The notes below the pieces were generated by a model, which searched no databases, was not told the DNA's origin, and saw only the letters and a list, made by a program, of their open reading frames with translations. DNA of 64,000 bases, from the NCBI GenBank assembly GCA_040756135.1, contig JBFLZS010000002.1:15949-79948 (forward strand). The letters run 5' to 3'. A program made the position numbers and the translations under genes. The DNA comes from Nitrospirota bacterium. Lineage in GTDB: Bacteria; Nitrospirota; Thermodesulfovibrionia; Thermodesulfovibrionales; SM23-35. This document shows, piece after piece, positions 1,733 through 59,139 of this stretch (the stretch's first letter is position 1; the number at the start of each line of letters is the position of its first letter).

Positions 1733-1773
1733 GTGAAAATATTACTTCAAAAGTATTAAGGGTTTCAAGCAAC

Positions 1774-1954: not shown

Positions 1955-1973
1955 TCATTCTGAAAAACCTTCT

Positions 1974-2579: not shown

Positions 2580-2594
2580 CTCCTTACCCTCCCT

Positions 2595-18239: not shown

Positions 18240-18368
18240 CTTATTAATTCACCTTCAAGTATTACTTTGATATCTTTGACATCTTGATTGCACTTGACAT
18301 CTTGATATCATTATGTCATATTATAAATAGCTAATCAGGCGGCGACTGAGTCATTCGGGCGCCGCTTT

Positions 18369-19121: not shown

Positions 19122-19196
19122 TTACACACTCCTGACCTTTTCAATGCTAAAGTTCAAACTCATATTTCCGCTTTCATCGAGGTATAGATAGAGCAT
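19122..19196 (-). pseudogene. 24-codon relic: DUF3800 5' end fused to an MTase-like 3' end
   Basis: It encodes MLYLYLDESGNMSLNFSIEKVRSV*. Positions 19168-19196 match 20332-20360 at 27 of 29 nt. The last 12 nt plus the stop match 21472-21483, the 3' end of the methyltransferase pseudogene. Confidence 0.5.
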
Positions 19197-19306
19197 TATT
19201 CTTTTTTTCTCTCGCAACTACAACCCTCTCACTGTAGATAAGTGCGGAGTTCATTCGCCGCCTACTACACTTTGTATGATGATTTAATTGCCTCCACTAT
19301 TCATAA

Positions 19307-20056
19307 TTACTGCGGATACATATTTGCAACCTCAACGATCTTCCATTTTCCTCTAATACGGACTATAGCACAACTGATGTCCCATCCTTCCTGGACAAGT
19401 GCAGTGGCCTCTTTTGGCACAGTTATGGGGCCAACAGTGCTCTTGCCGCTATCATTATAAACTTCAAGCCATAATTTCCCGGGCTCAACTTTCTCGATAG
19501 TGTAATGGTCAAAGTCATGGTAATCAGCATCGTCCAATTCATCCGGGTCAAAGTCCACGTGATCTGCAGACTCATAAAGAATATTCCCTGCCTTTTCAGC
19601 CTTGGGAAGGTCTCTGGCTGCAGACACCCCCTCTTCTTCACCCATCGCAGCATCTTCTTCTGAGATATATGCTTTTTCAGCAAGCCATTTTGAGAGCTTC
19701 TTGATTACACTGCCGGCAAGACGCTTGAAATCGCCGCCCGCCATGACTTTGCGTATAAGAAAGTGACTAAGAAACTCTTCGGTGTTTTCAGCAATTTTAT
19801 CCGGACCAAAAAGTTGGCAGAATTCTTTATGTTCTTGACCCTCTGCGTTATAATGCTTTTCAAAAAGGGCAGACTCTGCCTTCGACAGGCTTTGATAGGC
19901 ATAGCCGTTCATACAATCCTTAAACAATTGGATTACGTCTCTATAACCAGATACGGTCTTAGGCTTCAGCTTTAACATCTGCTCAGCCAGAAACTCCTCA
20001 AGCACCTGCTCAATAGTCGGATCGGCAATCTTAGGTAAGTTGATAATCTTTTTCAT
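19307..20056 (-). CDS. Hypothetical protein (intact, 249 aa)
   Basis: It is an uninterrupted ORF. The N-terminus (..EEFLAEQMLKLKPKTVSGYRDVIQLF) weakly recalls integrase SAM-like core-binding domains. It has an acidic linker and a C-terminal beta-rich domain. No confident family assignment. Confidence 0.45.
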   Translation of the reverse strand: MKKIINLPKIADPTIEQVLEEFLAEQMLKLKPKTVSGYRDVIQLFKDCMNGYAYQSLSKAESALFEKHYNAEGQEHKEFCQLFGPDKIAENTEEFLSHFLIRKVMAGGDFKRLAGSVIKKLSKWLAEKAYISEEDAAMGEEEGVSAARDLPKAEKAGNILYESADHVDFDPDELDDADYHDFDHYTIEKVEPGKLWLEVYNDSGKSTVGPITVPKEATALVQEGWDISCAIVRIRGKWKIVEVANMYPQ

Positions 20057-20360
20057 TTATATTTACCTCCGCTTTTCCACGTCTTTTATTGAGAGTAAGG
20101 GCATAAAGCTCGAATGGTACAGACTCAATGCGCCTGTAAAAATATCTTTTGATATCTATAGATTGTTTTGATCCTTTTAATTCAGTTCTTTTTTGTTTCG
20201 GGAATTTATATTGCAAAGTTCGTTTTACAGCCCTGGCTATTTTCTTTCTATTTTCCATGCCCTGCACCAGCATTACAGTAACAGTAAAATACCTCGATGG
20301 CTTCTTTGCAAAGAAATCGAACCCCAAATCTTCGCTTTCATCGAGGTAAAGATAAAGCAT
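20031..20360 (-). pseudogene. DUF3800 N-terminal fragment (109 aa)
   Basis: It begins MLYLYLDESEDLGFDF.. and contains YALTLNKRR. It then terminates, overlapping the next gene by 26 nt. The rest of the domain is absent. Confidence 0.5.
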
Positions 20361-20465
20361 TTATCTCCTATGTTTTATTTAGAATGCTTCTCATAAATAT
20401 CTCTCAAAAACTCATATCCCTTTGAGCCATAGATATTGCATATCCTGTTATTCCATAAAAAAAGA

Positions 20466-20588
20466 TTAAGGTTTTATCTTCCACGCTTTAACCGCTAATT
20501 GAGCATGCTCCTTCTGCCGATTTTCTATTGTTTCTTTTGTCCACTCAGTATGCTTAGATACACTTTGTGTTAACAAAAGATCGGATTT
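20466..20588 (-). pseudogene. C-terminal relic of a GmrSD-type (DUF262-DUF1524) protein
   Basis: Manual translation gives KSDLLLTQSVSKHTEWTKETIENRQKEHAQLAVKAWKIKP*. This is the usual C-terminal tail of DUF1524/GmrSD proteins. It is out of frame and separated from the DUF262 ORF upstream. No HNH/DUF1524 core is present. Confidence 0.5.
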
Positions 20589-20639
20589 TTTATAGTTCTT
20601 TTTCTCTAACTAACCCATGCTTAGAACTCCGGAAATGCC

Positions 20640-21434
20640 TTAGAAACACTGTAAAAGATTTTCGCCTCCATATGTACTTAAAGAAGCCATTGCCATAGTC
20701 CAAAGATTTAGCACTGTCTGAAGGTCTTCTCCTGCTCGACCCAGTAAATAATTTTTTAGAAGATCTGCGATTGAAAGGTCAAGGCCACGATCATTCATAG
20801 TTTCAAAAATAAGAAACGCATTCGCATCATCAGCAACAGTAAAGTAGATTATATAGACAGATTCACTTAAATATTTTGTGAATTCCGCAAGCCAGTTAAT
20901 TTGATCCTTTATTCCCTCCAATTTTTTAGATAGCCAGTTAGATATGGACTGTCGTGCATTCCAAAGGCGAAAGTGGGATTCAGGAGCTCCGCTCTCCGGT
21001 TTCTTTGCTTCTTCTGTCAAGATGGATCGGAAATAAGGATCATCGTTTTGGTTCAGCTTGAGTTGTGGCCGCTCTATACCCTCCGAGATGTCGAATATTG
21101 ATAGGTATTGACTACGTATGGCTTGAGCTCTTTTTCTGTCTGCAATATTGTCAAATTTATCTGCAATTCCTGCAAGCAATAACGAAACTACTGCAAGGCG
21201 TTGTTGGCCATCTAAGACTTTAGGCCGTACCCTATCGGATGCCGCAATTATTACCAGACTGCCTAAGAAGTAGTCCTCCTTATTCCTATTAAAAGCATCT
21301 CCAAGATCATCCAAGAGTTCTACGACCTCTTCAGTCCACTCGAACGGTCTTTGGTGTACAGGAACCTCTAATCTTGTGCTACTTAGAACTGATGCTATCC
21401 CCTTTATTTCAATTGACGTGTTGGGTTTTGGCAT
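20640..21434 (-). CDS. DUF262 (ParB-like nuclease, GmrSD N-terminal) domain protein, probably truncated
   Basis: It has the motifs VPVHQRPFEW and VLDGQQRL. I prefer the start at the ATG at 21434 (MPKPNTS). It ends without a DUF1524 domain. Confidence 0.7.
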   Translation of the reverse strand: MPKPNTSIEIKGIASVLSSTRLEVPVHQRPFEWTEEVVELLDDLGDAFNRNKEDYFLGSLVIIAASDRVRPKVLDGQQRLAVVSLLLAGIADKFDNIADRKRAQAIRSQYLSIFDISEGIERPQLKLNQNDDPYFRSILTEEAKKPESGAPESHFRLWNARQSISNWLSKKLEGIKDQINWLAEFTKYLSESVYIIYFTVADDANAFLIFETMNDRGLDLSIADLLKNYLLGRAGEDLQTVLNLWTMAMASLSTYGGENLLQCF

Positions 21435-22386
21435 ATGTAACCCCCCTTTTTGTAAATTGCATCCCTCATATTTACACACTCCTTGCCTTCTCAAGGCGGT
21501 TCTTGACGAGCTCGCAGACGGTCCAATAGACCTCGTTCCTTTCGTCTTCTGTCAGGCCGAGGATGTCGAAGACAATATCATGAGGGCCTTGCGGTCAGCG
21601 AGAGGATTAGGTTTCTGCTCACGGATTGGACGGGCGGGATTGATGCCACATTCCTCGAAAATAGATTTAAGGTCGCGTTTTTCTAAGAGCAAGTGATTGG
21701 TCTTTACTAAGGAAGGATCGAGCGTCAAAAGATTATTTACCTCATAAACCATTAAACTTTTCGCTCCCTCTCCTAAGCCCCCTCTTGATAATATTTCAGA
21801 TATAAGGCCAAACAATGTGGAATTTAACAGAGTTCTGTAATCTTACATCGCCATTTGCATAATATAGTCTGCAGTCACATAGCATATGATTATCAGACAA
21901 GAAGGTACCGAGCCTGTCGTTAGTTTCTTTTACCCAAAACATATTGCCCTTTAAATCAGGACAATCCCACCACCTTTGTCGTCCTATGCAGGTCGGTCTC
22001 TTATGAAATCCCTGTTTTTCTCCCCATTCAATATACCTCAGTGCATTTGTTCCTTTAATATCCTTCTTTTCGTCATGACACATAAAGATTTTGAATTTCA
22101 GATCTTTTGGTCTTATCCGAATCCCCTTACATTCTCTCGGGCTTTTTATTACAGGTTTTAGAAATTCATCTTCTATTTTCCATTCCTTGATACCTTTGTT
22201 ATCAAGGTAAAAAAAATTCATTTGCGCCTGAAGTAATACCACGCCTTACCTCTGCAATATCCCCAAGTCTGACGAGCTTGCCTTTTCCCTTCTCAAGGAT
22301 CGTAAAGAATATATCCGGCGCTCTAAGGTATTTCCCGCCCCACTTTTGAACATGACAAAGCGGGCTGAGTCTTGAAGGGCAGGCCA

Positions 22387-22422
22387 AATCCCCCCTTACC
22401 CCCTTTGCTAAAGGGGGGATTT
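22387..22422. repeat. 'KGG' palindromic repeat inside the methyltransferase pseudogene
   Basis: The sequence is aatccccccttaccccctttgctaaaggggggattt. It reads as IPPLAKGVRGDL. Confidence 0.75.
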
Positions 22423-23113
22423 TTGAGATATCTCCAAACATCTCAGTCTGTTCTTGCCTTTTTAGCGTTTCAAGAGACTGAATTTCTTTTTGAAGGGTTA
22501 CAATCCTGTCATCCAATATCTCGCCGAATATCCTGATCTCTTCCTGAAGAAGGGACTTGTCGCTTTTGAATTTGGCAGTAGGGTCATTGTTATAGTATTT
22601 CTCTTTCTCTGTCTTAAGGGCTAAAAGTTTTCTTTTAAGAGAAGGAGAAAGCCGACTATCTCTTATATGGAGACTCACTCCGCCAACCTCCTGTACGAGG
22701 GAATCACCTACACGTAACCTTAGGTTAAGGTTGGGAAGGAGGGGAAAGAGTTTTCTTTGTTCGTAAGGGATATCTTCTTCAATGATGAGCTGTAACCAGA
22801 GCCTTAACTCTGCCGAGTGTGTTGCCCAGGGCATGACATCCACACCATAAAGGGAATTTCCTATGATTTTTTTCTTTAGTTCGAACTCTGTCATTTCCCT
22901 CTGGATATGGCGATAGGTGAGCCTATAAAGTTCCACCAGCACACGAAGCATCCCCACAAGGAAAGCACCGCTACCACAAGCTGGATCCACCACTGTAAGG
23001 TTATCAAGAACCTCTTCCAGACGATACCAAAGGTTCTTTTTTGTAATGTAATCCTCAACGTCTTTTTTATCTTCATCAAATAGCAGTCTATATATCCATT
23101 CCTTTGAAAGCTC

Positions 23114-23208
23114 AAATCCCCCCTCGCCCCCCTTTGCTAAAGGGGGGATATCGGGAGGAGACTTTTCTAAAGGGGGAAACACACCCCTATCCCCTCTTGA
23201 TAGAGGGG
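23114..23208. repeat. Composite 'KGG' palindromic repeats inside the methyltransferase pseudogene
   Basis: It spans aaatcccccctcgcccccctttgctaaaggggggatatcggg...cccctatcccctcttgatagagggg. It reads as SPLSRGDRGVFPPLEKSPPDIPPLAKGGEGGFE. Confidence 0.75.
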
Positions 23209-24585
23209 AACTTAAATGGTTGCTGAGGTACTCCGCCAGAGACCTCCTGCACATAAAGTCAACCTCGATTGTCGGAGTATAGAAGATGCCGAGATCCTGC
23301 CTCTCGTATATCTCCTCTGCTACATTGGAGAGGGATTCATAAACATAACCTATCATCTGTGGGTCTACCGCAACCTCAACATCCAAAGGAAGGTCTTCAC
23401 GAATGGTAAAGTTATATTTCTCAAAGAAGTTAAGAACCTTTTCGAAGAGGCTATCGTTTATATGAAACGGTAGTTCGTCCAGTTCGTTTCTCTGAAACAG
23501 GCCGCCGTTAAGGTAGGGGGTTACGGCAAGGATCTTCTTAATATCCTGAGAGTGATAAGGAGGATGACTGTATTTATTATTGAACGCCTCAAGAAAGAGT
23601 ATTCTCAACCAATTTTCATAAAAGGTATTATCTTTGGCATCGCCCTTTCTTTTTTCTTCTTTATATCGTTCCCAGTACCACTTGATAAACTTCGGGGCAT
23701 CATTAAGCCATCTCTTCCTTGCAATAAAGTAAAGGAACATAAGCCTGTTAAGGAATTGCTGGGACAGTTCATGGGCATTCTTGACTGGGATCTTCTGTTT
23801 CTCAAAGGTTCTCCTTAGCTCAAAAAATGCATCTGTATAATCCTCAAAGAACTCATCTGTAACCTTCTCTACACTAAAGGCATCCTTCCACCTCTTCCAG
23901 ATGTCCCGCCAGTTCTCTTCATCTCCAGTAAGGGCAATGTTTGTGATAGTAAGAAGGTCTGTATGATAGGGATGTTCCCTGTCGAAGATAAGCTTTGTCA
24001 GCTTAAGTTTATGCTTGCCCTCTTCAACACGTTCGAATTCAGGGAAGACAAAGGTATATTCCTTGTAATCAGAGGTAAGGAGGAGAAGAAATCGGAGATA
24101 TTTGTCTGAGAAGCGCTTCGTGAGATAGCGGACAAAGGGGATTGAAAGGTTCTTGACTACTATGAGGAATATCTGTAGCTTACCGTCATAATTAAAGACT
24201 GTGTAGATATCTTTAACTTTCTCCTTTTCCTCTTTTGCAAACTCGAATTCTTCAATCTTTCTCTTATAGGACGGATCGAGGATCTTGTCTTTTTGATATC
24301 CAAGCCCACGAAAAAGCTCATAAATCTTTTCAGGAGAATCTGCCTCTGGGATGAAATTTTGAACATATTTTGTTATGTCCATGTCTTACCTTTATCATTT
24401 ATCCAAAAGAAGAAGAATATATCAATATATTTTGATTTAGAACAGATACATTTAAGCAATATTTTGCACGACGGAATTAGTTTACCATCTCAACTGCAGA
24501 ATATCAAAATGAAATAAGTTGAGCAACGCTGGAGGGGGCCCATTAAAATGCCCTTTGTATCAACTTAGTAAATTGTGTAAACTTT

Positions 24586-25470
24586 TTAAGCCCTTGGATG
24601 GTGTTTTGTATAAACCTTTTTTATCCTATCGGTTGTTACCTTTGTATAGATCTGGGTTGTTGAAATATCAGAGTGGCCGAGCATTTTCTGTAATGATCTG
24701 AGATCAGCCCCGCCCTCGAGTAGATGTGTTGCAAAGGAGTGTCTCATTATGTGTGGTGAAAGCTTTATCCCGAGCCTCCTGCTTATGGTCTTTGTCGTCT
24801 GCCAGAAACGCTGCCTTGTCATTGGCCTTCCTCTCCTTGTAACAAAAAGATAAGAAGAACGCCTATTTTTCAGGATCTCCGGCCTTTGCTGGTTTATATA
24901 TCTCTTTATTCTTTCCATCGCTCTCATATTGACAGGTACAACACGTTCCTTTGAACCCTTTCCTAAAACTCTTAAAAAGCCCGACTCTAAATTAATATCA
25001 TCAAGTTTAAGGGATACCATCTCACTGACACGGAGGCCTGAAGAATACAACAGTTCAAACATTACATGGTCTCTTACCATGGTGGGTGTATTCTGGTTAG
25101 AAGATAGGTTTGTTTCGAGTAAAGATCTAACCTCAGAAATGCTGAGTGATTTTGGAAGCCTTTCCCATCTCTTTGGTGCCTGCAGGTTTTCTGAAGGGTC
25201 CTCCTTTATAACATTCTCGACAATAAGATATTTGCATAACCCTTTGATCGAAGATATAAACCTGCATATACTGGATACAGAGTAACCTTCCTCCCTTAGC
25301 CTTTCAATAAAATCAATTATATCAGCCCTCGAGAATGAAACAAAATCCTTCTCCTTTGATAATAAAAAGTTTTGGAATTTATTGAGATCAAGAAAATATG
25401 AATCGACAGTATTCCTTGAGAGCCCCTTTTCTACAGACAGATATGTGAGAAAATCATTCAGTAGTTTCAA
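24586..25470 (-). CDS. xerD: Tyrosine site-specific recombinase, XerD-like
   Basis: 294-aa ORF. The N-terminal SAM-like domain has FLTYLSVEKGLSRNTVDSYFLDL. Catalytic residues include ..HIMRHSFATHLL.. and LGHSDISTTQIYT. Confidence 0.8.
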   Translation of the reverse strand: MKLLNDFLTYLSVEKGLSRNTVDSYFLDLNKFQNFLLSKEKDFVSFSRADIIDFIERLREEGYSVSSICRFISSIKGLCKYLIVENVIKEDPSENLQAPKRWERLPKSLSISEVRSLLETNLSSNQNTPTMVRDHVMFELLYSSGLRVSEMVSLKLDDINLESGFLRVLGKGSKERVVPVNMRAMERIKRYINQQRPEILKNRRSSYLFVTRRGRPMTRQRFWQTTKTISRRLGIKLSPHIMRHSFATHLLEGGADLRSLQKMLGHSDISTTQIYTKVTTDRIKKVYTKHHPRA

Positions 25471-36653: not shown

Positions 36654-39194
36654 GTGAATCTCTCACTTTTCCAGAAACCGAGCAGATATATAAACAAAGA
36701 GATAAATGCTATTTACAAGGACGCACCTGTAAAGGTTGCCCTCGCGTTTCCTGACATCTACGAAATCGGGATGTCTCATCTCGGGCTCAAAATCCTTTAC
36801 AAAATAATAAATGACCTTCCGTTTGCTTCCGCCGAGAGGGTATTTTCACCATGGCTTGACCTCGAGGCCGAGATGAAGGCAAAAAGAATATCTCTTTCAT
36901 CCCTCGAATCAAACCGTCCATTGAGAGACTTTGATATCGTAGGTTTTAGTCTCCAGTACGAACTTTCATATACTACAGTCCTTAATATGCTCTATCTCGG
37001 TGGAATCCCATTGAGGTCCGAAGAAAGAAATATTTCATCTTTTAATCGCCACTACCCGCTTGTTATTGCTGGTGGGCCTTGCACTGTTAATCCACTACCA
37101 ATGTCTCCTTTTATTGACGCATTCCTGATTGGTGACGGAGAAGAAGCTATTAAGGAGATACTGAATACATTTTACCTATGGAAGACAGGTGGAGATAGTA
37201 AAAGGGAATCCCTTCTTCAAGCCCTCTCAAAGATTGAAGGGATGTATGTGCCAAATAATCCCCCCTCCCCCCCTTTAGAAAAGGGGTGTAAGGGGGGATT
37301 TGAAAAAAGGGGGATTGGGGGAGTTAAGAGGCGATTTATAAAATCCCTCGATGACATACCTTATCCTGATAATCCCGTTGTTCCATACGCCTCGATCATC
37401 CATGACAGGGTAAACATTGAGGTTTCAAGGGGATGCTCGATGGGTTGCAGGTTCTGTCAGGCAGGTATGATTTACAGGCCGGTTCGTGAAAGAAGCCCTG
37501 AAAAAGCCTTAGAGATCGCAGAAAAATCCCTGAAAAACACAGGCTACGAGGAGGTTGCATTCACATCCCTGAGTGCCGGGGACTATAGCTGTCTTTTACA
37601 GGTTGTAAGGGAATTTAATAAAAGGTTTGGAAACAAGAAGATCGCCCTCTCACTTCCTTCCCTTAGAGTCGCATCTGTAAATCCCGAACTTTTGAGAGAG
37701 ATACGTGCTGTTAGGAAAACAGGCTTTACAATTGCACCCGAGGCAGGAACTGACAGGCTCAGAAGGGTAATCAATAAAGACTTTGAGGAAGAGGACTATG
37801 AAAGGGCTCTCAGGACACTGTTCGAAGAAGGCTGGCATAATCTCAAACTATATTTTATGATAGGGCTTCCAACAGAGACTGAAGAAGATATAGAGTCAAT
37901 CCATAAAATGGCTATGAAAGCACTTAAAATTTCAAAACAGTATACGAAAAGGTTTGTCAATATAAACATAGGTATTTCCCCCTTTGTTCCAAAACCACAC
38001 ACGCCTTTTCAATGGTATGGACAGATCTCTTCTGCGGAGCTTAAAAGAAAAAAGCACTATATTAAAGACGTTCTGACAAAAAAAGGGTTAAAGATTAAGG
38101 GGCATAATGTAGAGATGAGCCTTCTTGAGGCTGCTTTCGCCCGCGGAGATGAAAGACTTGCATCACTTATCGAAAGGGCCTGGTCTCTCGGGTGCAGGCT
38201 TGATGCATGGTCAGAAGCCTTTGATTTTAAAAAATGGGAAACCGCAATGAATCTTACAGGTACAGATGTAACAGACTTTTCAAAAAAGACTTTCGAAGAT
38301 TCGGATGTCCTACCCTGGGAGAAAATAGATATAGGGATAACAAAAGAATTTCTCTGGAAGGAATACCAGAGGGCATTATCAGGGAATATAACAACAGACT
38401 GCAGGAAAACCTGTCACAATTGTGGACTCTCTTGTAATAAAAACACAGAGAAGGTCAGAAGATCAGAAAATCAGAAGTTAAGCACTTCATCTCATCCTCT
38501 TAACTTCTCAACTTCTCAACCTCTTCGTTTTAAGCCTGTAAAGATAAGGGTTGAGTTCACCAAGACAGGCAGATTGAGATATCTTTCACACCTCGAACTT
38601 ATTACCGTGTTGCATAGGGCGATCAGGAGGGCAGGATTTCCTTTAGAATATTCAATGGGCTTTCATCCATTTCCAAGGATATCATTCGGCCCTCCACTTG
38701 GTGTAGGGATTGCAGGGCTTAGTGAATATTTTGATATGGAAATAATTCCGCCTTTTGATTTAGTCGTAAACAGAAAAAAGATAAATAATATACTGCCAGA
38801 AGGGATTTGTGTAAAGGACATGTCATCTGTATCAGAAAAGGCTGAATCTCTATGTAGCTTTATAACAAGGTATGAATATGAAATAAGAGGTGGGAATTCG
38901 TTTAACGTCTATAGGTTTTTATCAGAAAAAGAGATAAATTTTAAAAGGGAACAATATTTTATAAACCTCAGGGGTATGGTAGAAGAAGCTAAGCAAATTG
39001 AGGAGGATACAACAAAAATAATAGTAGTAGATCAAGGAGATACAAAGGTTAGGCTTGGTGAACTTCTTCCTGAGATATTTAATGTCCCTTTGGAAAGCCT
39101 TGACATAACAAGGGTAGCCCTTTATGGATGGAATGGTGGCTGGGTAAAACCCCTTAATAATTGCAAAATGCAGATTATAGATTGCAGACAGTAA
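36654..39194 (+). CDS. B12-binding-like radical SAM protein fused to a DUF2344 domain (TIGR03960 + TIGR03936 type)
   Basis: It has a GTG start and KPSRYINKEIN N-terminal. The rSAM motif is SRGCSMGCRFCQAG. The C-terminal module has RYLSHLELITVLHRAIRRAG. It lies upstream of rng, as is common. It contains repeat insertions. Confidence 0.8.
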   Translation: MNLSLFQKPSRYINKEINAIYKDAPVKVALAFPDIYEIGMSHLGLKILYKIINDLPFASAERVFSPWLDLEAEMKAKRISLSSLESNRPLRDFDIVGFSLQYELSYTTVLNMLYLGGIPLRSEERNISSFNRHYPLVIAGGPCTVNPLPMSPFIDAFLIGDGEEAIKEILNTFYLWKTGGDSKRESLLQALSKIEGMYVPNNPPSPPLEKGCKGGFEKRGIGGVKRRFIKSLDDIPYPDNPVVPYASIIHDRVNIEVSRGCSMGCRFCQAGMIYRPVRERSPEKALEIAEKSLKNTGYEEVAFTSLSAGDYSCLLQVVREFNKRFGNKKIALSLPSLRVASVNPELLREIRAVRKTGFTIAPEAGTDRLRRVINKDFEEEDYERALRTLFEEGWHNLKLYFMIGLPTETEEDIESIHKMAMKALKISKQYTKRFVNINIGISPFVPKPHTPFQWYGQISSAELKRKKHYIKDVLTKKGLKIKGHNVEMSLLEAAFARGDERLASLIERAWSLGCRLDAWSEAFDFKKWETAMNLTGTDVTDFSKKTFEDSDVLPWEKIDIGITKEFLWKEYQRALSGNITTDCRKTCHNCGLSCNKNTEKVRRSENQKLSTSSHPLNFSTSQPLRFKPVKIRVEFTKTGRLRYLSHLELITVLHRAIRRAGFPLEYSMGFHPFPRISFGPPLGVGIAGLSEYFDMEIIPPFDLVVNRKKINNILPEGICVKDMSSVSEKAESLCSFITRYEYEIRGGNSFNVYRFLSEKEINFKREQYFINLRGMVEEAKQIEEDTTKIIVVDQGDTKVRLGELLPEIFNVPLESLDITRVALYGWNGGWVKPLNNCKMQIIDCRQ
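37257..37322. repeat. 'KGG' palindromic repeat in frame in the rSAM CDS
   Basis: It spans aatccccccctccccccctttagaaaaggggtgtaaggggggatttgaaaaaagggggattggggg. It encodes NNPPSPPLEKGCKGGFEKRGIGG. Confidence 0.8.
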
Positions 39195-40907: not shown

Positions 40908-41225
40908 TCAAATCAAAACCCATTTGGATTTTCGTTTATGATAATCTCCTTTAAGTACATCATAGAAATTCTCTCGTTTGCCGATCATGATAATATAGAC
41001 AATCTTCCTCTCATCATCAACAGTATAGGCAATTCTATAATCAACCTTGTTCTCTCGAAAATGGTAGCAGAATATCCCTTCAAGATCACCGTAAAGACAT
41101 TCTCCAATAAAAGGATTCTCCAGCAAGATGTCCAGGTGAGTACTGTGGATTTCTTTTACTGCATGTTTATCCAGTTTTTTTAAATCTGCTTTGACCCTTG
41201 GATGATATGCATCCTTATAAGACAT
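40908..41225 (-). CDS. RelE/ParE-family type II toxin
   Basis: 105-aa ORF with ..RIAYTVDDERKIVYIIMIGKRENFY, the typical RelE/StbE C-terminus. It overlaps the upstream small gene by 11 nt. Confidence 0.7.
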   Translation of the reverse strand: MSYKDAYHPRVKADLKKLDKHAVKEIHSTHLDILLENPFIGECLYGDLEGIFCYHFRENKVDYRIAYTVDDERKIVYIIMIGKRENFYDVLKGDYHKRKSKWVLI

Positions 41226-41412
41226 CCCTGAATGTCTCCTCTCTCGTAAGAGGCTTAACTTTTTTTGTTTTAATATCTCGTGCCCGCTTCACAAGTTCCC
41301 GACCTTCACCCGACAATAAGAGAAGCAACATTTCCTTGTCAGCCTTTTTCAACTTTTTTATAGAATTAGCGATGTCTTCAACCTTCAATTCGACCATTAC
41401 CCCAACACTCAT
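41215..41412 (-). CDS. Putative antitoxin
   Basis: 65-aa ORF with a strong RBS (GAGGAGG) 8 nt upstream of the ATG at 41412. The call rests on its position immediately upstream of, and overlapping, the RelE-like gene. Confidence 0.5.
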   Translation of the reverse strand: MSVGVMVELKVEDIANSIKKLKKADKEMLLLLLSGEGRELVKRARDIKTKKVKPLTREETFRDVL

Positions 41413-41500: not shown

Positions 41501-42160
41501 CTATAATTCCCCGTGTTCCAGCAAACTGTAATACCCCTTGTGGTTAAAAATGATGTGATCAAGAAGTTTTATCCCAAGAATTTCTCCTGCAGCTTTTAAC
41601 TGTTCTGTAATTTCGATATCATCTTTACTTGGTGTCAATCCGCCGGATGGATGATTATGCGCTACGATGACAGATGAAGCACGGTCGGTTATCGGGTCAG
41701 AGAAAACCTCTCTGGGATGTACCTGAGTTCTATTGACAAGTCCAACAGAAACAACACGGCTTTTTATTACTTCATTAGCACCATTAATTGAAATACATAT
41801 AAAATGTTCTTGCTTTCGGTCTGCATAATGCTGAATTAACGGAAGTATATCAGCAGGGAAGGAAATTTTAAGTCCCTCCGGTCTGATACGGCGTCGCGAA
41901 AATTCAAGTGCAGCAGCTATAAGAGTTGCTTTTGCAAAACCCACTCCTTCGATTTTTTTAAGTTCTTCAATATCAGGTTTTTCTTTACTATTATCCAATG
42001 CCTTTAATACACGTGCAGCAATGTTCATCACGTCATGGCCTTTAATGCCTCTGCCAAGAAGGATTGCAAGCAATTCAATATCGGATAGGGCTTCAGCGCC
42101 TTTTTGCTGGAGTTTCTCGCGGGGACGGTCGGATGCAGGAATGTCCTTAATCTTTTTCAT
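41501..42160 (-). CDS. radC: RadC-like JAB-domain protein
   Basis: It begins MKKIKDIPASDRPREKLQQKGAEALSDIELLAILLG (HhH N-terminus). The JAMM motif is HNHPSGGLTPSKDD. The ATG at 42160 forms an ATGA overlap with the upstream stop. Confidence 0.85.
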   Translation of the reverse strand: MKKIKDIPASDRPREKLQQKGAEALSDIELLAILLGRGIKGHDVMNIAARVLKALDNSKEKPDIEELKKIEGVGFAKATLIAAALEFSRRRIRPEGLKISFPADILPLIQHYADRKQEHFICISINGANEVIKSRVVSVGLVNRTQVHPREVFSDPITDRASSVIVAHNHPSGGLTPSKDDIEITEQLKAAGEILGIKLLDHIIFNHKGYYSLLEHGEL

Positions 42161-42549
42161 TTCAGATGGAGTTGTGCATTCTCTGCCAATTCCATCGCAA
42201 TCAATTTCTGTTCTGATTTCTCTCTTGGCCATCCAATGATATTCGCATGCCTTGGTGGGTTGTTGTCCGGAGCTATTTTTAATTTATTACTCAAAATATG
42301 GAACGCTGCAATATCTGCCCGTCCTAAAAGTGGCCGACTCCGCTTTTGAGCTACTTCACGGTCACCGATTCCCCATATTTCATTGTCAGATAAGTGTGAA
42401 ATACGAAATACCGATGTTTCGCCATTAGGTGCCGGCATGAAAACTACATATTTAACCCTTCTATATAAGCTGCTGAAATGATTTATATGAAGAATATAAC
42501 GAGTTAGAGTCTCTTCCGGACTTACTTGTTCTAAATTCAAGGCTGTCAT
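42157..42549 (-). CDS. Hypothetical protein (130 aa)
   Basis: It runs from the ATG at 42549, 1 nt after the upstream stop. It has conserved-looking segments ETSVFRISHLSDNEIWGIG and PPRHANIIGWPREKSEQ. No family recognised. Confidence 0.45.
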   Translation of the reverse strand: MTALNLEQVSPEETLTRYILHINHFSSLYRRVKYVVFMPAPNGETSVFRISHLSDNEIWGIGDREVAQKRSRPLLGRADIAAFHILSNKLKIAPDNNPPRHANIIGWPREKSEQKLIAMELAENAQLHLK

Positions 42550-42550
42550 C

Positions 42551-43009
42551 TTATGGATATAGACGGCGAAGATTCTCAATAATTTTTGTGGGGATTGAAT
42601 CACTAAAATATTCTGTACCGTGAGTCTTATTGCTACCAAATATGCCAGCATAAGCAATCATATTTTTCCCGCTGAAACTGATTGCAAAAGCCAATCGTTT
42701 ACCTTTATACCATTCCAACCCTATCTCGCCAGAAGGCTCAGCCAAAATTTGAGGAATAGGGAATGAAGAAGGAAGTAATTGAATAAAATCTAATGCCTCA
42801 GAAATAGAGTCGTTTGACACTGGATTCGCACCATAACCGTCCCAATTGGGCTTAGAACATTCTTTATAAAGTTCTAAGAGTGATTCAACCGCTTCTTCAA
42901 TGGGACGACCAATTGTTACAGTGGTTTTCCATATTTCTTTTTTGCTATATTCCATATTGCATGGAACGTAAAAACTGGGACAATCAATGCACTGGACTGC
43001 TACGCTCAT
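42551..43009 (-). CDS. Hypothetical protein (152 aa)
   Basis: It has an ATGA overlap with the upstream gene. It contains the NWDGYGANP and GEIGLEW segments. No family recognised. Confidence 0.45.
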   Translation of the reverse strand: MSVAVQCIDCPSFYVPCNMEYSKKEIWKTTVTIGRPIEEAVESLLELYKECSKPNWDGYGANPVSNDSISEALDFIQLLPSSFPIPQILAEPSGEIGLEWYKGKRLAFAISFSGKNMIAYAGIFGSNKTHGTEYFSDSIPTKIIENLRRLYP

Positions 43010-43746
43010 AAAAATAGCTCCTTTGCTTTTTCAGTAATACTTTTAAAAAATATTTCATTTTTGAAATGGCGTAATTTTTCAAGGATCTCCCATGTCTCTT
43101 TTTCGCTTATTCCCTCAGATTTTTGCTTGAATACATCTATATCCAATATTAAAGGCAAAATGTTAGGATTAACAATTTGTTCAAAAGCCTGTGTAATTAT
43201 AGCAGTGGCATCTATTTTAGGTTCATGTATAACAATGCGTGTCAAAAAACTACTAACCCCTTGCGGCAACCCATCTGGCACAGTCGGCGCCGCTGTCAAA
43301 TAATCACTGAAGTCCATAATAGGAAGAGGAATTTCCATTTTATTAATATATCTTAAAGCTACTCTTGTAATCTCAGGAGAGGTTACTTCTTTATATTTTC
43401 TCCATAATCCGTGTGCTTCATTGCGAAGATGTTCCCATGTTTCGTATGGCTTTAATCTACTGAATGTAAAACCATCTAATCTTGTCTGGAGTATCTGGCT
43501 CTTGTCAACAGACGTAAATATATAGCCATCAATTGTTTCAGTACTAGTTGAAATCGGGGTCTCACCTCTTTTAAATCCTAATTTGCCTTCCCATTTATGC
43601 CTTTCTTTTTTATCCGGATATTGTCCTGAAATAGAATCGTATATTGAATTGAACTGTTCAACTGATAAATCTTCTTTCACCTTAATCCGAATATCAATGA
43701 GAGCTTCTATAATAGGTGCTTTCGACAACACTGAATATTCAACCAT
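43006..43746 (-). CDS. Hypothetical protein, resembles the TIGR04255 family
   Basis: 246-aa ORF. The N-terminal ..APIIEALIDIRIKV.. and the overall length recall TIGR04255 (function unknown). The assignment is from memory and unverified. Confidence 0.45.
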   Translation of the reverse strand: MVEYSVLSKAPIIEALIDIRIKVKEDLSVEQFNSIYDSISGQYPDKKERHKWEGKLGFKRGETPISTSTETIDGYIFTSVDKSQILQTRLDGFTFSRLKPYETWEHLRNEAHGLWRKYKEVTSPEITRVALRYINKMEIPLPIMDFSDYLTAAPTVPDGLPQGVSSFLTRIVIHEPKIDATAIITQAFEQIVNPNILPLILDIDVFKQKSEGISEKETWEILEKLRHFKNEIFFKSITEKAKELFL

Positions 43747-43813: not shown

Positions 43814-45157
43814 TTATTTCTTGTTCCCCTTTTTCTTTATTACGTGTTTTGCCTTTTCAGCCCTGATGCGCTCCAGCAGAACCGAAGCCGGTTCGTCATT
43901 CGGATCCTGCGGTACAAGCTCGCCACGGAAGGCTTTAGCAAGTACGGACTGTGTGAGTCGATTTATGAAAGATTTTCCATCAACTAGACTGATTTGAGAT
44001 AAACGAATTCTACATATATTTATTTTATAAAAAAGTTTGTCCAATTTATTTACAATCCTATACTGTTCATTAAATGGAGCTATTATTATTGGAACCAGAC
44101 TTAGATTTTTTTGATTTATTGAAACTTGATTTACTGCATGACTTACTCTGCTACGAACCTCTTGTCGGAAAAATTCTGTTTGCATGAAATAGTGGGCATA
44201 TTTGGGCAATATATAGGAATGTCCAAAACGTAATCTCAGTAAATTCATACCATGAATAAATTGTTTTGGTTCGCCCTCATAGAGAGCAGTTTTACCAACA
44301 TGTTCATAACTGTTGATATGACTTAGGGCAATATCACCCATTTTGTATCTGTATGCCTCCAAAACATCTTTAGAAATATTATCTACATGCTGTACTCTAC
44401 TTAGATCAAATGTATATGATTGAATAGTCTCAATCCTTGAAACGGGTATTCCTCTTCCAGTTTTATTTTGGGTCATTGTAGTCCCATTTTTTATTTCGAA
44501 AAAACATTCACCGATTGTTGAAATTATCCAGCTACTTGGGAAATTATCTAAACTATTTTGATTATTTTCTTCAATTAATGCTATTAGCTCCCTTAAATCA
44601 TCAACCGTTGTTTCAAATATCGTTATAACCTCGCTTGCCAGATCCTGCGGCTCCGGGAGTCCGTCAACATCTTCAACTGATTCGTCTTTAAGCCAAGTTA
44701 TATCAAGCTTATAATCCCGCTCCTTGATGTCACTGATATGGAATTTTCTGAATCGCCCTTCTTCACCTGAATCAGTTCTCTTGCTCTGACCATTGGGGTC
44801 TTTGCCATAACACTTTTCAAACTCCTCAAAATGCTGTGGAGTAAGAGGCCTGTCTTTCTTTGTTATCCCGGGAACATTTGAGCGGGCATCAAATATCCAG
44901 ACATGTTCTGTGGGCAAACCTTTCTGAAAGAATATTACATTTGCCTTTACTCCCTGACTGTATGGTGTAAATGTTCCCCTTGGAAGACGTAGAATAGTGT
45001 GCAAATTACAATCCTTCATCAATATCTCAAAGACTTCCCCAGCTTTATCTTCAAAAAGGCAATTATCGGGTAAAACCATTGCTGCCTTTCCGCCGGGTTT
45101 AAGGATATTCATGACATGCTTCATAATCATGGTCGCCGCTTTCCTGAGCAAAGGCAC
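43814..45157 (-). pseudogene. hsdS: Type I R-M relic: HsdM C-terminal part fused in frame to a single-TRD HsdS
   Basis: KHVMNILKPGGKAAMVLPDNCLF..ILRLPRGTFTPYSQGVKANVIFFQKG is the HsdM C-terminal third. No SAM-binding or NPPF motifs are present. It is followed by one TRD and a conserved HsdS C-terminus (LAKAFRGELVPQDPNDEPASVLLERI). Confidence 0.7.
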
Positions 45158-46061: not shown

Positions 46062-46392
46062 CTTGACTCTCTTCTTGTTGATAGCGTGCTCTATTCAAAT
46101 CGATCTATTTCCAACCTCCGAGATTAAAATACTCCACAAAAATCAGCACGATCGGAACTTTAAATGTATCAACGAATACGGCCCTCGGCTCAGTAATCTC
46201 TCACGCGGCCTCTCATCCACCGGCCATGACACAATACCTTTCGACTTTCTTTTGTCTGAGATTTTCATTTCAGATCTATTCTATATTATATTCAATGTGT
46301 TACGATAATTTTACTTTTTCTCTTTCGTTGTTCAAACCCGCATGTTTATTTGACGTAATTCAGTCTTTAAAAGTAACATAAGGATATACAGA

Positions 46393-47199: not shown

Positions 47200-47288
47200 A
47201 TTCCCCCTTAGCGAAGGGGGATTAAGGGGATTGTGCCTTTTTCAGCCTTTTTACAACCCTCTCGCCCCCTTTTTTAAGGGGGAATTTC
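47200..47288. repeat. Intergenic 'KGG'-type palindromic repeats
   Basis: It contains attcccccttagcgaagggggattaagggga ... ccctctcgcccccttttttaagggggaattt. Confidence 0.7.
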
Positions 47289-50090: not shown

Positions 50091-50136
50091 AATCCCCCTT
50101 CACCCCCCCTTTTCTAAAGGGGGGAGTGGGGGGATT
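50091..50136. repeat. 'KGG' palindromic repeat at the 5' end/leader of the cNMP-binding gene
   Basis: The sequence is aatcccccttcaccccccttttctaaaggggggagtggggggatt. Confidence 0.75.
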
Positions 50137-55302: not shown

Positions 55303-55452
55303 TATTAACGGTCTCAAAATAGAATTCATATTATTCGGAAAATCTCCCCTCGCCCCTCTTTGCCAAAGAGGGGTATGATTCCTCCCTTTGGCAAAGGGAG
55401 GTTAGGAGGGATTTTATAAATCAATGTGCTTACTATTATGAGACTGTTAATA
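55303..55452. mobile_element. MITE-like composite repeat, copy 2
   Basis: The TIRs are tattaacggtctca (55303-55316) and tgagactgttaata (55439-55452), matching at 13 of 14 positions. Two inner G/C hairpins are present. It is near-identical to 1774-1954 apart from one missing hairpin unit. Confidence 0.55.
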
Positions 55453-55512: not shown

Positions 55513-57327
55513 ATGGCACCAAAATTAGGTCAACTCCTTATATCCTCTAACATTATCTCAGAGGATCAATTAAAGGAAGCCCTTAATCTCCAGAGGAGAG
55601 AGGGTGGAAGGCTGGGGACAAACCTTGTGAAATTAGGTTATATAACCGAGGAAAAACTTGTCACATTCCTCAGCAGACAATATGGTGTTCCTGCAGTAAA
55701 TTTATCTGACTACAAGATTGACCCATCAGTTTTAAAGCTCATACCTGTTGACATAGCAAAGAAGTATCTTATAATGCCAGTTGCAAGGGTTGGGGCTGTC
55801 TTGACAATTGCGATGGTTGATCCATCTAATGTATTTACAATAGACGATGTGAAGTTTATGACAGGATACAATGTTGAGGTTGTTGTAGCGAGCGAATCCT
55901 CGATCTTAAATGCAATATCCACATATTATGCGGGTCATGGTGACACCCTTATTGCGGCAAAGAAGGCTACCACAACACAGGTGCTTGAGGCAAAGGATTA
56001 TACACTTTCAGAGGAGGACTTCGTGGATGAAGGTATAACAACTTCAATTGACGAAGGCTTTATGGTCGATGTCGATGAATTTGATAAGGTAGTGGATAGG
56101 GCCCTCGACGATGTTGAAGTGATAGAGGAAAGAGAGGATGCAGAAACTGCAAAGGATGTAGCACAACCAATAGTAAAGCTTGTTAATGGCATACTTGTAA
56201 ATGCGATAAAGGCAAGGGCAAGCGATGTCCATATAGAACCATATGAGAACTCTCTGAGGGTAAGGCAGAGGGTTGACGGCGTGATGTATACAATCATGAA
56301 CCTGCCCGTAAAGATAAAGGCTGCTGTAACATCGAGGATAAAGATAATGGCAACCCTTGATATTGCAGAGAGGAGGCTTCCTCAGGATGGAAGGATTAAA
56401 CTGAGACTCGGCAAAAAAAGAGAGATAGATTTCCGTGTCTCGACTGTGCCATGCCTTTTTGGTGAGAGGACTGTTTTAAGGCTTCTTGATAAGTCAAACC
56501 TTCAGGTGGATCTCACAAGGCTTGGATTTGAGGAAGAAACATTGCAGCATTTTATGGATGCACTTGACAAGCCATATGGCATGATACTCGTTACAGGACC
56601 TACTGGATGTGGCAAAACAACCACCCTCTATTCTGCATTAAATTACCTCAATAAGATAGGTGTTAATATATCAACTGCTGAGGATCCTGTTGAATATAAT
56701 TTCTTAGGTATAAATCAGGTCCAGGTTAAGGAAGATATAGGCCTTACCTTTGCCTCAGCCTTAAGATCCTTTTTGAGGCAGGATCCTGATATCATAATGG
56801 TTGGAGAGATTCGCGATTTCGAGACAGCCGAGATCGCGGTTAAGGCAGCCCTTACAGGCCATCTTGTCCTCAGTACCCTTCACACAAATGATGCACCTGG
56901 AACTATAAGTAGATTATTGAATATGGGTGTCGAGCCCTTTCTTGTCGCAGCATCAGTCATCCTTATTGCTTCCCAGAGGCTTGTCAGAAAGGTATGCACT
57001 GATTGCAAGGAGGATGAAAAGATTCCTGTTCCTGCCCTTATAAGGCTGGGATTCTCAGAAGAAGAGGCAAATTCCATAAAATGTTACAAGGGTAAAGGTT
57101 GTCCTGTATGCAATGGTTCCGGGTATAAAGGAAGGATAGCCCTTTATGAGGTTATGCCGCTCAAAGACGAACTCAAGGAACTCATCCTTGAAGGTGCATC
57201 AGCAGATGAGTTAAAAAAGACTGCTATTAGGCTCGGTATGAAAACGCTAAGAGCGAGTGGCCTTGCCAAAATAAAGAGTGGTATAACCTCTGTAGAAGAG
57301 GTAGTCAGGGTCACATTTGGTGATTGA
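55513..57327 (+). CDS. pilB: Type IV pilus assembly ATPase PilB (GspE family), copy 1
   Basis: It has an N-terminal MshEN/T2SSE_N domain, Walker A GPTGCGKTT and a tetracysteine motif (CTDC..CPVC). 604 aa. Confidence 0.9.
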   Translation: MAPKLGQLLISSNIISEDQLKEALNLQRREGGRLGTNLVKLGYITEEKLVTFLSRQYGVPAVNLSDYKIDPSVLKLIPVDIAKKYLIMPVARVGAVLTIAMVDPSNVFTIDDVKFMTGYNVEVVVASESSILNAISTYYAGHGDTLIAAKKATTTQVLEAKDYTLSEEDFVDEGITTSIDEGFMVDVDEFDKVVDRALDDVEVIEEREDAETAKDVAQPIVKLVNGILVNAIKARASDVHIEPYENSLRVRQRVDGVMYTIMNLPVKIKAAVTSRIKIMATLDIAERRLPQDGRIKLRLGKKREIDFRVSTVPCLFGERTVLRLLDKSNLQVDLTRLGFEEETLQHFMDALDKPYGMILVTGPTGCGKTTTLYSALNYLNKIGVNISTAEDPVEYNFLGINQVQVKEDIGLTFASALRSFLRQDPDIIMVGEIRDFETAEIAVKAALTGHLVLSTLHTNDAPGTISRLLNMGVEPFLVAASVILIASQRLVRKVCTDCKEDEKIPVPALIRLGFSEEEANSIKCYKGKGCPVCNGSGYKGRIALYEVMPLKDELKELILEGASADELKKTAIRLGMKTLRASGLAKIKSGITSVEEVVRVTFGD

Positions 57328-57330
57328 ACT

Positions 57331-59139
57331 ATGGCAGCGAAATTAGGTCAACTCCTTATAGCCTCTAATATTATCTCGGAGGATCAGTTAAAGGATGCCC
57401 TTAATCTCCAGAAGAGAGAGGGTGGAAGGCTGGGGACGAACCTTATGAAATTAGGTTATATAACTGAGGAAAAACTTGTCACATTCCTCAGCAGACAGTA
57501 TGGTGTTCCAGCAGTAAATTTATCTGATTACAAGATTGACCCATCAGTTTTAAAGCTCATACCTGTTGACATAGTGAGAAAGTATTTTGTAATGCCTGTT
57601 GCGAGGGTTGGGGCTACCTTAACGGTTGCGATGGTTGATCCATCTAATGTGTTTGCAATAGACGATGTAAAGTTTATGACAGGGTATAATGTTGAGGTTG
57701 TTGTAGCCAGCGAATCCTCGATCTTAAATGCCATATCCACACATTATGCGGGGCACGGTGACACCCTTATTGCGGCAAAGAAGGCTACCACAACACAGAT
57801 GCTTCAGGCAAAGGATTATACACTTTCAGAGGAGGATCTAAGGGAGGAAGAAATAGTTTCGTTTGATGAGGGCCTAATGGTCGATGTCAATGAATTTGAT
57901 AAGGTTGTCGGAGATGCGCTGGATAGTATAGAGGCATTTACTGAAAAAGATGAAGCAGCAGTTACAGAGGTTGAAGAGCCAATAGTAAAGCTTGTTAATG
58001 GCGTACTTATAAATGCAATAAAGGGAGGTGCAAGTGATATCCATATAGAGCCGTACGAGAGCTCTCTGAGGGTTAGGTACAGGGTTGACGGCGTTTTGTT
58101 TAATGCGATGAATCTGCCATTAAAAATAAAGAATCCTATAACCTCAAGGCTCAAGATAATGTCAAAGCTTGATATTGCAGAAAGGAGGCTTCCTCAGGAT
58201 GGAAGGATTAAACTGAGACTTGGTAAAAAAAGAGAGATAGATTTCCGTGTTTCGGTTCTGCCATGTCTTTATGGCGAGAAGACGGTTCTAAGAATTCTCG
58301 ATAAGTCAAACCTTCAGGTAGACCTTACAAAACTTGGATTTGAGGAAGATGCATTAAAAATATTCATGGATGCACTTGACAAGCCATATGGCATGATACT
58401 TGTTACAGGACCTACTGGAAGTGGTAAGACAACTACCCTCTATTCTGCATTGAATTTCCTTAATAAGCCCGGTATTAACATAATGACTGCTGAGGACCCT
58501 GTTGAGTATAACTTTTCAGGGATGAATCAGGTACAGATAAAGGAAGATATAGGACTTACATTTGCTTCGGCCCTCAGATCTTTTTTACGGCAAAGTCCGG
58601 ATATCATCTTAGTGGGCGAGATTCGTGACTTCGAGACAGCCGAGATTGCGGTTAAGGCAGCCCTGACAGGCCATCTTGTCCTCAGCACCCTTCACACAAA
58701 TGATGCCCCGAGCAGCGTAAGCAGGTTATTGAATATGGGGATAGAACCCTTTCTTGTATCGGCATCTGTTATCCTTATCGCAGCCCAGAGGCTTGCCAGA
58801 AAGGTATGCACAGATTGCAAGGAGGAGGAAAAGATTCCTGTTCCTGCCCTTATAAGGCTGGGATTCTCAGAAGAAGAGGCAAATTCCATAAAATGTTACA
58901 AGGGTAAAGGTTGTCCTGTATGCAATGGTTCAGGGTATAAAGGAAGGATAGCCCTTTATGAAGTTATGCCTATTAGCACAGAGATAAAGGAGATGATTCT
59001 TGAAGGGGCATCGGCAGAAGAGTTAAAAAAGACTGCTGTGAGACTCGGCATGAAGACGTTAAGGATGAGCGGTCTTAATAAAGTGAAAGAAGGTATCACT
59101 TCGATAGAAGAAGTGATGAGAGTTACGTTTGGAGATTAA
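57331..59139 (+). CDS. pilB: Type IV pilus assembly ATPase PilB, copy 2 (tandem paralogue)
   Basis: 602 aa, collinear with copy 1. Walker A is GPTGSGKTT. It starts 3 nt after the copy 1 stop. Confidence 0.9.
   Translation: MAAKLGQLLIASNIISEDQLKDALNLQKREGGRLGTNLMKLGYITEEKLVTFLSRQYGVPAVNLSDYKIDPSVLKLIPVDIVRKYFVMPVARVGATLTVAMVDPSNVFAIDDVKFMTGYNVEVVVASESSILNAISTHYAGHGDTLIAAKKATTTQMLQAKDYTLSEEDLREEEIVSFDEGLMVDVNEFDKVVGDALDSIEAFTEKDEAAVTEVEEPIVKLVNGVLINAIKGGASDIHIEPYESSLRVRYRVDGVLFNAMNLPLKIKNPITSRLKIMSKLDIAERRLPQDGRIKLRLGKKREIDFRVSVLPCLYGEKTVLRILDKSNLQVDLTKLGFEEDALKIFMDALDKPYGMILVTGPTGSGKTTTLYSALNFLNKPGINIMTAEDPVEYNFSGMNQVQIKEDIGLTFASALRSFLRQSPDIILVGEIRDFETAEIAVKAALTGHLVLSTLHTNDAPSSVSRLLNMGIEPFLVSASVILIAAQRLARKVCTDCKEEEKIPVPALIRLGFSEEEANSIKCYKGKGCPVCNGSGYKGRIALYEVMPISTEIKEMILEGASAEELKKTAVRLGMKTLRMSGLNKVKEGITSIEEVMRVTFGD

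Follow-up and report, generated by a model that had tools for sequence, protein, structure and literature searches.

In several described bacterial systems the gene for a small enzyme of ADP-ribosyltransferase (ART)-type fold lies beside the gene for an obligatory cognate partner; these include DarTG, ParST and CmdTAC, all of them compact, co-oriented and coupled modules with a sporadic, horizontally mobile distribution. A three-component layout is known from CmdTAC (PMC11618068). Tpt1/KptA enzymes, which also belong to the ART superfamily and have no obvious catalytic glutamate, act on RNA 2'-phosphates and 5'-phosphates (PMC6182162, PMC6333775). PDC-M32, an uncharacterised two-gene defence candidate with one incidental mention in the searchable literature, has been reported in Sinorhizobium prophages (PMC12429752). 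These are among the closest known systems to a locus from a Nitrospirota bacterium (GenBank assembly GCA_040756135.1), found in a stretch of 64,000 nucleotides of contig JBFLZS010000002.1 (positions 15,949 to 79,948), the whole of which is referred to here as the window. Four intact genes form one block there: G1, G2, G3 and radC.

The recurrent unit in this block is a compact, horizontally mobile three-gene cassette, G1–G2–G3, of ~1.6 kb. G2–G3 form its constant core and the first gene is exchangeable; radC is a lineage-specific co-travelling neighbour, not a core component. RadC is conspicuous in defence and anti-defence neighbourhoods, and the tempting misreading of it as part of the system is corrected here. 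The cassette may be a mobile toxin–antitoxin (TA)-like or abortive-infection/defence module with an effector that would use NAD+, a reading to which we give almost, though not quite, an even chance.

The recurrent unit and its radC neighbour

A preliminary description of this DNA, made from its letters, had reported four minus-strand open reading frames (ORFs) with almost no spacing, and their lengths, coordinates and junctions all stand (Table 1). ATGA stop/start overlaps join G1 to G2 (43006-43009) and G3 to radC (42157-42160); a single base lies between the G2 stop codon (42551-42553) and the G3 ATG (42547-42549), and a GAGGGG ribosome-binding site is present 5 nt ahead of the G1 ATG. The ORFs are genuine genes under purifying selection, not chance ORFs, because each of the four has hundreds to thousands of homologues and the ratio of non-synonymous to synonymous divergence (dN/dS) is 0.04-0.21 for all of them in pairwise comparison with seven relatives. 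The ongoing selection that had been suggested from the uninterrupted frames is thereby borne out.

Related loci, 89 in all (L numbers below), were gathered by exact-protein look-ups together with one genome, one metagenome and one viral scan, and were scored with a hidden Markov model per gene; they are not all independent, with non-identical G3 proteins in 69 of the 89. Among the 72 loci whose flank is at least 500 nt, 70 have G2 immediately before G3, and both G1 and G2 are upstream of G3 in 56 of the 58 with at least 1300 nt. Of the 46 loci with at least 700 nt available downstream, only 9 have radC after G3, and these all belong to the subclade nearest the window, in which G3 is at least 71% identical. 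Three further sampled relatives of G3 also have the trio. The 4-nt G1/G2 overlap is kept in 11 of the 12 loci listed, and between G2 and G3 there is anything from an overlap of 4 nt to a gap of 14 nt. In L065, L083 and L084, the first gene encodes an unrelated protein of 214-247 aa in place of G1, so that G2–G3 are the constant core; the G2 variants of these loci have a longer N-terminal extension. Their first genes were considered as divergent TIGR04255 members and rejected as such, having no TIGR04255 or Pfam match and an hhalign probability of 0.2.

Several loci retain the trio and only the end of radC, or none of it. L011 has an intact trio followed by the last 49 nt of radC, L070 keeps the trio or most of it with the last 161 nt of radC, and in L024 and L027 similarity to the window stops precisely where G3 ends; the trio is therefore retained in the absence of RadC. 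Synonymous divergence (dS) separates the genes further. Against L009 it is ~0.5 for G2 and G3 and ~1.4 for G1 (1.37) and radC; against L021 and L022 it is ~0.45 for the trio and 0.96-1.5 for radC. The dS of radC is thus 2-3 times that of G2–G3, which argues for a separate history, and the mosaic indicates recent recombination, limited to part of the cassette, by which G2–G3 moved independently of radC. G2 and G3 themselves are adjacent, co-oriented and tightly spaced and share their dS, which is the layout of a type II TA pair.

The preliminary description had treated all four genes as one module. In that case, the JAB/JAMM domain of RadC would be integral to function, for example in processing G2 or in reversing a modification. 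The subclade nearest the window gives this some support: the ATGA overlap between G3 and radC is also present in L001 and L009, an overlap or a gap of at most 15 nt is found in L026 and L010, and the gene order is kept in nine loci labelled as Nitrospirota, Planctomycetota and Bacteroidetes metagenome-assembled genomes (MAGs). RadC is 79-87% identical in L002, L010, L021 and L026, and its dN/dS of 0.04-0.09 denotes strong purifying selection. Elsewhere the trio is usually not syntenic with radC, which is missing beside it in 37 of the 46 loci with enough flank; L011 has lost radC from an intact trio, L024 and L027 are without it altogether, and the separate dS history and the type of RadC encoded point the same way. 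A four-gene module is very unlikely, and radC is better regarded as a neighbour of the three-gene cassette.

The preliminary description had correctly recognised a RadC-like protein with a JAB domain and HNHPSG motif, from a family that it described as often found on mobile elements and in defence or anti-defence neighbourhoods. Short, JAB-only RadC proteins are typical of prophages and conjugative elements, as opposed to the full-length chromosomal type. The protein encoded here matches Pfam RadC (PF04002; 4.2e-40) and UPF0758_N (PF20582; 1.1e-22), and scores 206.1 bits against NCBIfam PRK00024 (cutoff 180), which places it in the RadC/UPF0758 family. From this two-domain architecture and the score against the PRK00024 housekeeping equivalog model, it is classed as a full-length RadC of the chromosomal housekeeping type.

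The proteins of the cassette

The resemblance of G1 to TIGR04255 that had been noted earlier proves to be full-length membership of that family. The NCBIfam match reaches 131.6 bits (E 4.1e-38) against a curated cutoff of 30 bits, with residues 7-245 aligned to profile positions 2-251 of 252, and the G1 homologues of two viral contigs (L081 and L082) also exceed the cutoff. The subfamily is large, with more than 5600 matches. TIGR04255 has no Pfam model, a PDB sequence/profile search with G1 gives no solved structure, and literature searches for TIGR04255, IPR026349 and CHP04255 return no papers; a partnership of the family with G2–G3 is unrecorded in the literature and sources searched.

G2 and G3 each have about 200-250 homologues in a 90%-clustered database (194 for G2), all of them unnamed, and these bear adjacent locus tags in several MAGs. 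As the preliminary description had suggested, both proteins lie outside described families: scans of Pfam, NCBIfam, PHROGs and PADLOC give a single link, which is that of G2 to the PADLOC profile PDC-M32A. This profile is matched by 49 of 63 members of the G2 family (best E 3.8e-8), over profile positions ~270-328 of 375 only. G2 carries the motifs NWDGYGA, GEIGLEW and HGTEYF and a conserved C-terminal alpha/beta domain. Its AlphaFold2 model has an overall predicted local distance difference test score (pLDDT) of 82.5; residues 34-152 are modelled confidently, and the first ~33 residues, modelled at low confidence, are likely to be disordered. Foldseek finds no significant PDB match for the G2 model. 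Resemblances to the CdiI and TriTu immunity-protein folds (probability 0.51 or less) were too weak and were left unused. The two families differ in charge, with a median isoelectric point of 4.9 for G2 and 8.7 for G3.

G3 belongs to a large family, with 3009 clusters at 50% identity in an exhaustive profile search (E <= 0.001). Each of the 150 best matches listed is a small protein with a single domain; lengths in the family run to 90-190 aa, with one matched stretch per member. The AlphaFold2 model of G3 is very confident (pLDDT 94.6) and forms one compact domain, which resembles the Tpt1/KptA ADP-ribosyltransferase fold in the predicted structure, at the level of fold only. The top five Foldseek matches in the PDB are Tpt1/KptA proteins from Thermococcus and Pyrococcus; Tpt1 from Runella and Aeropyrum and the ART-fold effector AvrPphF come further down. 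At best, the probability is 0.98, the TMq 0.54 and the E 0.075. In a BFVD search with G3, viral Tpt1 entries recur weakly.

Conserved residues can be placed on this model. In an alignment of 141 sequences (the window G3 and 140 of the 150 best matches listed), R17, P39, S46, W59, H101 and W107 are conserved, R17 (strand 14-19) and S46 (strand 45-49) at 90% or more. We infer from the order of strands in the model that R17 and S46 match the R-S positions of R-S-E ARTs. H101 opens a later strand, at the spot expected for the acidic residue of an ART, as mapped by secondary-structure order and not by superposition.

Two other explanations of G3 bear on this fold. The first takes G3 for an NAD+-dependent phosphotransferase like Tpt1, with a role in RNA repair or end-processing, and would make the cassette a maintenance or repair module; its best structural matches are, after all, RNA 2'-phosphotransferases. 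At 130 aa, however, G3 is too short for both lobes of Tpt1 (~180 aa), and, with no profile similarity either, it falls outside the Tpt1/KptA family. A nine-sequence KptA alignment, for which homologues were taken from E. coli and plasmids, has its R-H dyad and the catalytic arginine that follows in an N-terminal half that G3 cannot cover; no R-H-R-R tetrad can be aligned, and hhalign gives a probability of 0.2. No ligase, 2H phosphoesterase or kinase partner was found, and the distribution is sporadic and horizontally transferred. A role in RNA repair is thus hardly probable.

The second is that the ART resemblance is coincidental, and that G3 does not use NAD+ and has some other function, for example in a small regulatory or structural complex. 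This is unlikely, if far from negligible: no structural match reaches E 0.001, sequence profiles do not connect G3 with any ART family, no third catalytic residue could be identified in G3, and neither G1 nor G2 has informative homologues. Chance resemblance would nevertheless have to account for the retrieval of Tpt1 orthologues from four genera together with another ART-fold protein (probability 0.98, TMq at most 0.54), and for a conserved strand-1 arginine and strand-2 serine that, from the secondary structure of the model, fit R-S-E ARTs.

The island in the window and the cassette elsewhere

In the closest subclade, the cassette travels in an island ordered type I restriction–modification (R-M), trio, radC. 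In L001, L002 and L086 a complete type I R-M set, its hsdR called as two ORFs, immediately precedes G1. No complete hsdR/hsdM/hsdS set remains in the window, where the same position holds a relic (Table 1). Within 43814-45157, MTase_I is matched only at profile positions 288-483 of 487, and Specificity_I only in its C-terminal half. By blastn, window 45118-44589 corresponds to the 3' part of L002 hsdM and 43958-43814 to the 3' end of hsdS, and window 45587-45120 corresponds to L002 171-638; since the next matching block begins at L002 3236, this jump implies that one deletion of ~2.6 kb probably joined the N-terminal part of hsdR to the C-terminal part of hsdM. The broken restriction genes that had been reported upstream are therefore accounted for mostly by a single event. 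The ParE/RelE-type pair downstream had also been recognised, and its toxin matches Pfam ParE-like_toxin (6.6e-20) and NCBIfam RelE_StbE (5e-8). It lies outside the region common to related loci: blastn similarity to relatives runs from the 3' end of hsdS (43958) to the stop of radC (41501-41517) and no further.

Table 1. Coordinates of the cassette, its radC neighbour and the adjoining gene remnants in the window
Feature	Position	Strand	Size or basis
G1, TIGR04255-family, first cassette gene	43006-43746	-	246 aa
G2, acidic protein	42551-43009	-	152 aa
G3, basic single-domain protein, putative effector	42157-42549	-	130 aa
RadC, full-length (UPF0758_N + JAB)	41501-42160	-	219 aa
ParE/RelE-type TA pair	40908-41412	-	toxin at 40908-41225 and small upstream partner
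Type I R-M relic: C-terminal part of hsdM fused in frame to shortened hsdS	43814-45157	-	PADLOC, blastn
Type I R-M relic: hsdR, N-terminal 320 aa	45099-46061	-	PADLOC REase_I partial matches
Second, different radC, 5' stump of ~30 codons	46180-46268	-	RadC N-terminal motif

Horizontal movement of the R-M, trio and radC block is suggested by comparison of the sequences, because 79-87% identity of RadC across phyla (labelled Nitrospirota, Planctomycetota/Brocadiaceae and others) far exceeds vertical expectation; the block has most probably moved in this way, with the caveat that MAG binning of islands is unreliable. Direct repeats that could be att sites bounding 41.5-46.3 kb are all short and at chance level, and a promoter/terminator scan performed no better than on shuffled sequence.

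Upstream of the R-M relic lies the stump of a second radC. Its ORF (46143-46268) starts with MKISDKRKSKGIVSWPVDERPRERLLSRGPYSL, a RadC N-terminal motif, and the sequence of the stump is WPVDERPRERLLSRGP; compared by eye with the N-terminus of the intact RadC, only the central RPRE[KR]L core is common to both. A promoter-like site (46335-46308) precedes the stump, from the same scan. The simplest reading is that an island with its own radC displaced the resident radC, and the island radC appears to stand in for the disrupted resident gene. An intact, full-length radC carried by the island beside the stump of a resident one could mean that islands use radC as a site of insertion or replacement. 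No radC stump was found upstream of the R-M genes in L085, a Nitrospirae relative in which hsdR is cut at the contig edge. There, unrelated sequence (L085 1-222) truncates the 5' end of hsdR; its frame-0 translation is TLLQILSVTLFEKMPLQQIVQYSNYGFNITENQNQLNLFDS*, and a repeated or mobile element may end there. A piece of yet another radC is also present in the window at ~354-520 on the minus strand, comprising the C-terminal ~57 codons and ending FKDKGLLR. It lies on the same strand as the 5' stump, 45.6 kb away, and directly follows the stop of an ORF (524-1732) that is phosphoglycerate mutase-like by eye. The 3' end of radC is repeatedly spared, in this piece as in L011 and L070.

Contexts of the cassette elsewhere are variable, and span several phyla at 60-88% identity. 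In Rhodocaloribacter litoris the trio lies between sucA and the ATP synthase operon, in Smithellaceae beside a DEAD/MZB helicase, and in L016 beside RhuM and hsdR. In the Syntrophaceae MAG locus L020, a DarT-like and then a macrodomain-like ORF, recognised by eye from their N-termini, are found ~1.1 kb downstream of G3 (1602-3323); these would be a known ART toxin–antitoxin pair adjoining the cassette. Among 148 non-redundant neighbour ORFs, housekeeping functions dominate (seven ABC transporters, six response regulators, four histidine kinases and three sigma-54 activators), and the few defence families are type I R-M, DpdF, PIN and PemK. PADLOC matches to AriA and mad3 among the neighbours were set aside: their member count equals that of the seven Pfam ABC_tran matches, and they are most simply explained as cross-matches of ABC-type ATPases. 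Outside the closest subclade, the defence-island setting proposed in the preliminary description is weak; strong embedding of the trio in such islands is unsupported by the scan of neighbours, which are mostly housekeeping genes. The cassette behaves as a small, self-contained, TA-like mobile insert, and not as an obligate resident of defence islands.

Three IMG/VR viral contigs also carry the trio, beside tail-fibre-like, lysis-like or baseplate genes. Moron-like positions such as these, next to structural and lysis genes, raise the question of whether mobile elements could carry the cassette as cargo for anti-defence or fitness. In that case G3 would modify a host immune or housekeeping protein, as does the ADP-ribosylating anti-CRISPR AcrIF11, G1 and G2 would be accessory, and chromosomal copies would be remnants of such elements. 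G3 has a size that fits small ART-type effectors; a small self-contained insert in variable contexts is likewise consistent with cargo. Most copies, however, lie amid chromosomal housekeeping genes with no phage genes near, G3 homologues were found neither among 50,697 records of cultured phages nor among 72,556 plasmids, and the listed 50 best PDB fold matches for G3 do not include AcrIF11 by name. An obligatory acidic partner also suits self-protection better than an offensive effector. We consider cargo of this kind improbable.

Some further features of the window lie away from the island. Runs of C and G make up a palindromic repeat, AATCCCCCCnnnnCCCCCCTTT..AAAGGGGGGnnnnGGGGGGATT, whose half-sites are matched 26 times where 0.1 would be expected; it is present at 1812-1914, 5827-5871, 12853-12953, 22387-22406, 23115-23135, 37257-37325, 47213-47232, 50091-50136 and 55341-55413. 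Several copies are read in frame as part of long ORFs, giving peptides such as NPPSPPFSKGGKGGFEK, and in this they recall the palindromic elements inserted in Rickettsia genes. Defence-related genes, of which several look truncated, form a second cluster at 16721-25470; it contains a helicase-like ORF (16721-17992, SNF2-like by eye), and, from Pfam matches, a DUF3800 protein (18369-19121), a GmrSD_N/DUF262 protein (20640-21494) and an MmeI-like methyltransferase protein (22202-24382), followed by an ORF resembling a XerD-type recombinase by eye (24586-25470). On the plus strand, two tandem and highly similar PilB-type ATPase-like ORFs of 604 and 602 aa (55513-57327 and 57331-59139, by eye) are followed by PilT- and PilC-like ORFs, recognised by eye from their translations.

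Proposed function and comparison with known systems

The preliminary description had proposed an undescribed conflict module. A conflict system is still our best guess, with the unit now being the trio without radC. In the mechanism that we envisage, G3 would be a small, basic ART-like enzyme with conserved R17, S46 and H101, which would use NAD+, either in modifying its target, a nucleic acid or a protein, or so as to deplete NAD+ itself. G2 would bind and silence G3 via its conserved C-terminal domain, while its variable N-terminal part may contact the product of the first gene. G1 would be an exchangeable sensor or regulator that times the release of G3, for example on phage infection.

A TA-like or defence module is consistent with the synteny and common history of G2 and G3, the dispensable radC and the exchangeable first gene. 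The pattern of an acidic G2 and a basic G3 is that of classical type II TA pairs, and the domain link to PDC-M32A, the viral-contig copies, the type I R-M neighbours and the DarT- and macrodomain-like ORFs in L020 lend further support. A number of points weigh on the other side. For G3, the similarity is one of fold, with no Foldseek match at E 0.001; profile comparison with KptA yields only 5 aligned columns at the low probability given above; the 141 G3-family sequences have no match to the Pfam ART families, including PF01885, or indeed to any Pfam family; and no catalytic acidic residue could be placed. PDB sequence/profile searches with G1, G2 and G3 give nothing below E 0.04. Typical type II antitoxins have a DNA-binding domain, whereas none is recognisable in G2, and homologue searches give no structural or functional clue to G1. 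Enrichment for defence islands is weak among the neighbour ORFs, and G3 homologues are missing from the cultured phage and plasmid sets. The toxicity of G3, its use of NAD+ and its binding by G2 are what we infer.

Comparison with the described systems places the cassette near several of them and inside none. G3 matches none of the DarTG, ParST or CmdTAC families in Pfam or PADLOC, and none of G1–G3 matches a Pfam model (DarT, PF14487, included) or a PADLOC model that belongs to DarTG or CmdTAC. Domain scans of G1 and G2 revealed neither a macrodomain nor a SecB-like chaperone nor any other known antitoxin domain, and no catalytic glutamate was identified in G3. To our knowledge, a TIGR04255 first gene is not a feature of DarTG, ParST or CmdTAC.

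Tpt1/KptA gives the best structural match to the G3 model and shares with G3 the lack of an obvious catalytic glutamate, whereas it has two lobes in ~180 aa as against a single domain in 130 aa, and E. coli kptA stands alone whereas G3 is always paired with G2. The C-terminal domain of G2 is homologous to part of PDC-M32A. Only ~60 of 375 positions of M32A are matched, G1 and G3 match no PADLOC model at an E of 1 or less, and the full-length M32A and M32B partner that make up PDC-M32 are not present. RadC, the co-traveller, has the HNHPSG JAB domain and the N-terminal helix-hairpin-helix region of RadC/UPF0758; it differs from the short JAB forms of mobile elements in being full-length, yet it is island-borne.

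No family model, defence-system model or paper was found for G2, G3 or the trio in the sources searched, and the Aravind survey of NAD+–ADP-ribose (ADPr) systems does not describe the cassette. An ART-type effector combined with a cognate partner and a third component has precedents in DarTG, ParST and CmdTAC, but the domains that define these systems are absent here. It is possible, though on balance doubtful, that G1–G2–G3 is an undescribed and widespread immune or addiction system built on a new, minimal ART-like family, represented by thousands of sequence clusters from many phyla and also carried by some phages. Its active site would be R-S-H in place of R-S-E or H-Y-E, its acidic G2 an inhibitor or adaptor, and its first gene an exchangeable sensor. 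If the mechanism envisaged above holds, the cassette would add a new enzyme family to the NAD+/ADP-ribosylation conflict repertoire, provide a first role for the large orphan family TIGR04255, and tie the PDC-M32 candidate to a testable partner logic, all in a compact ~1.6 kb system that is easy to clone and test.

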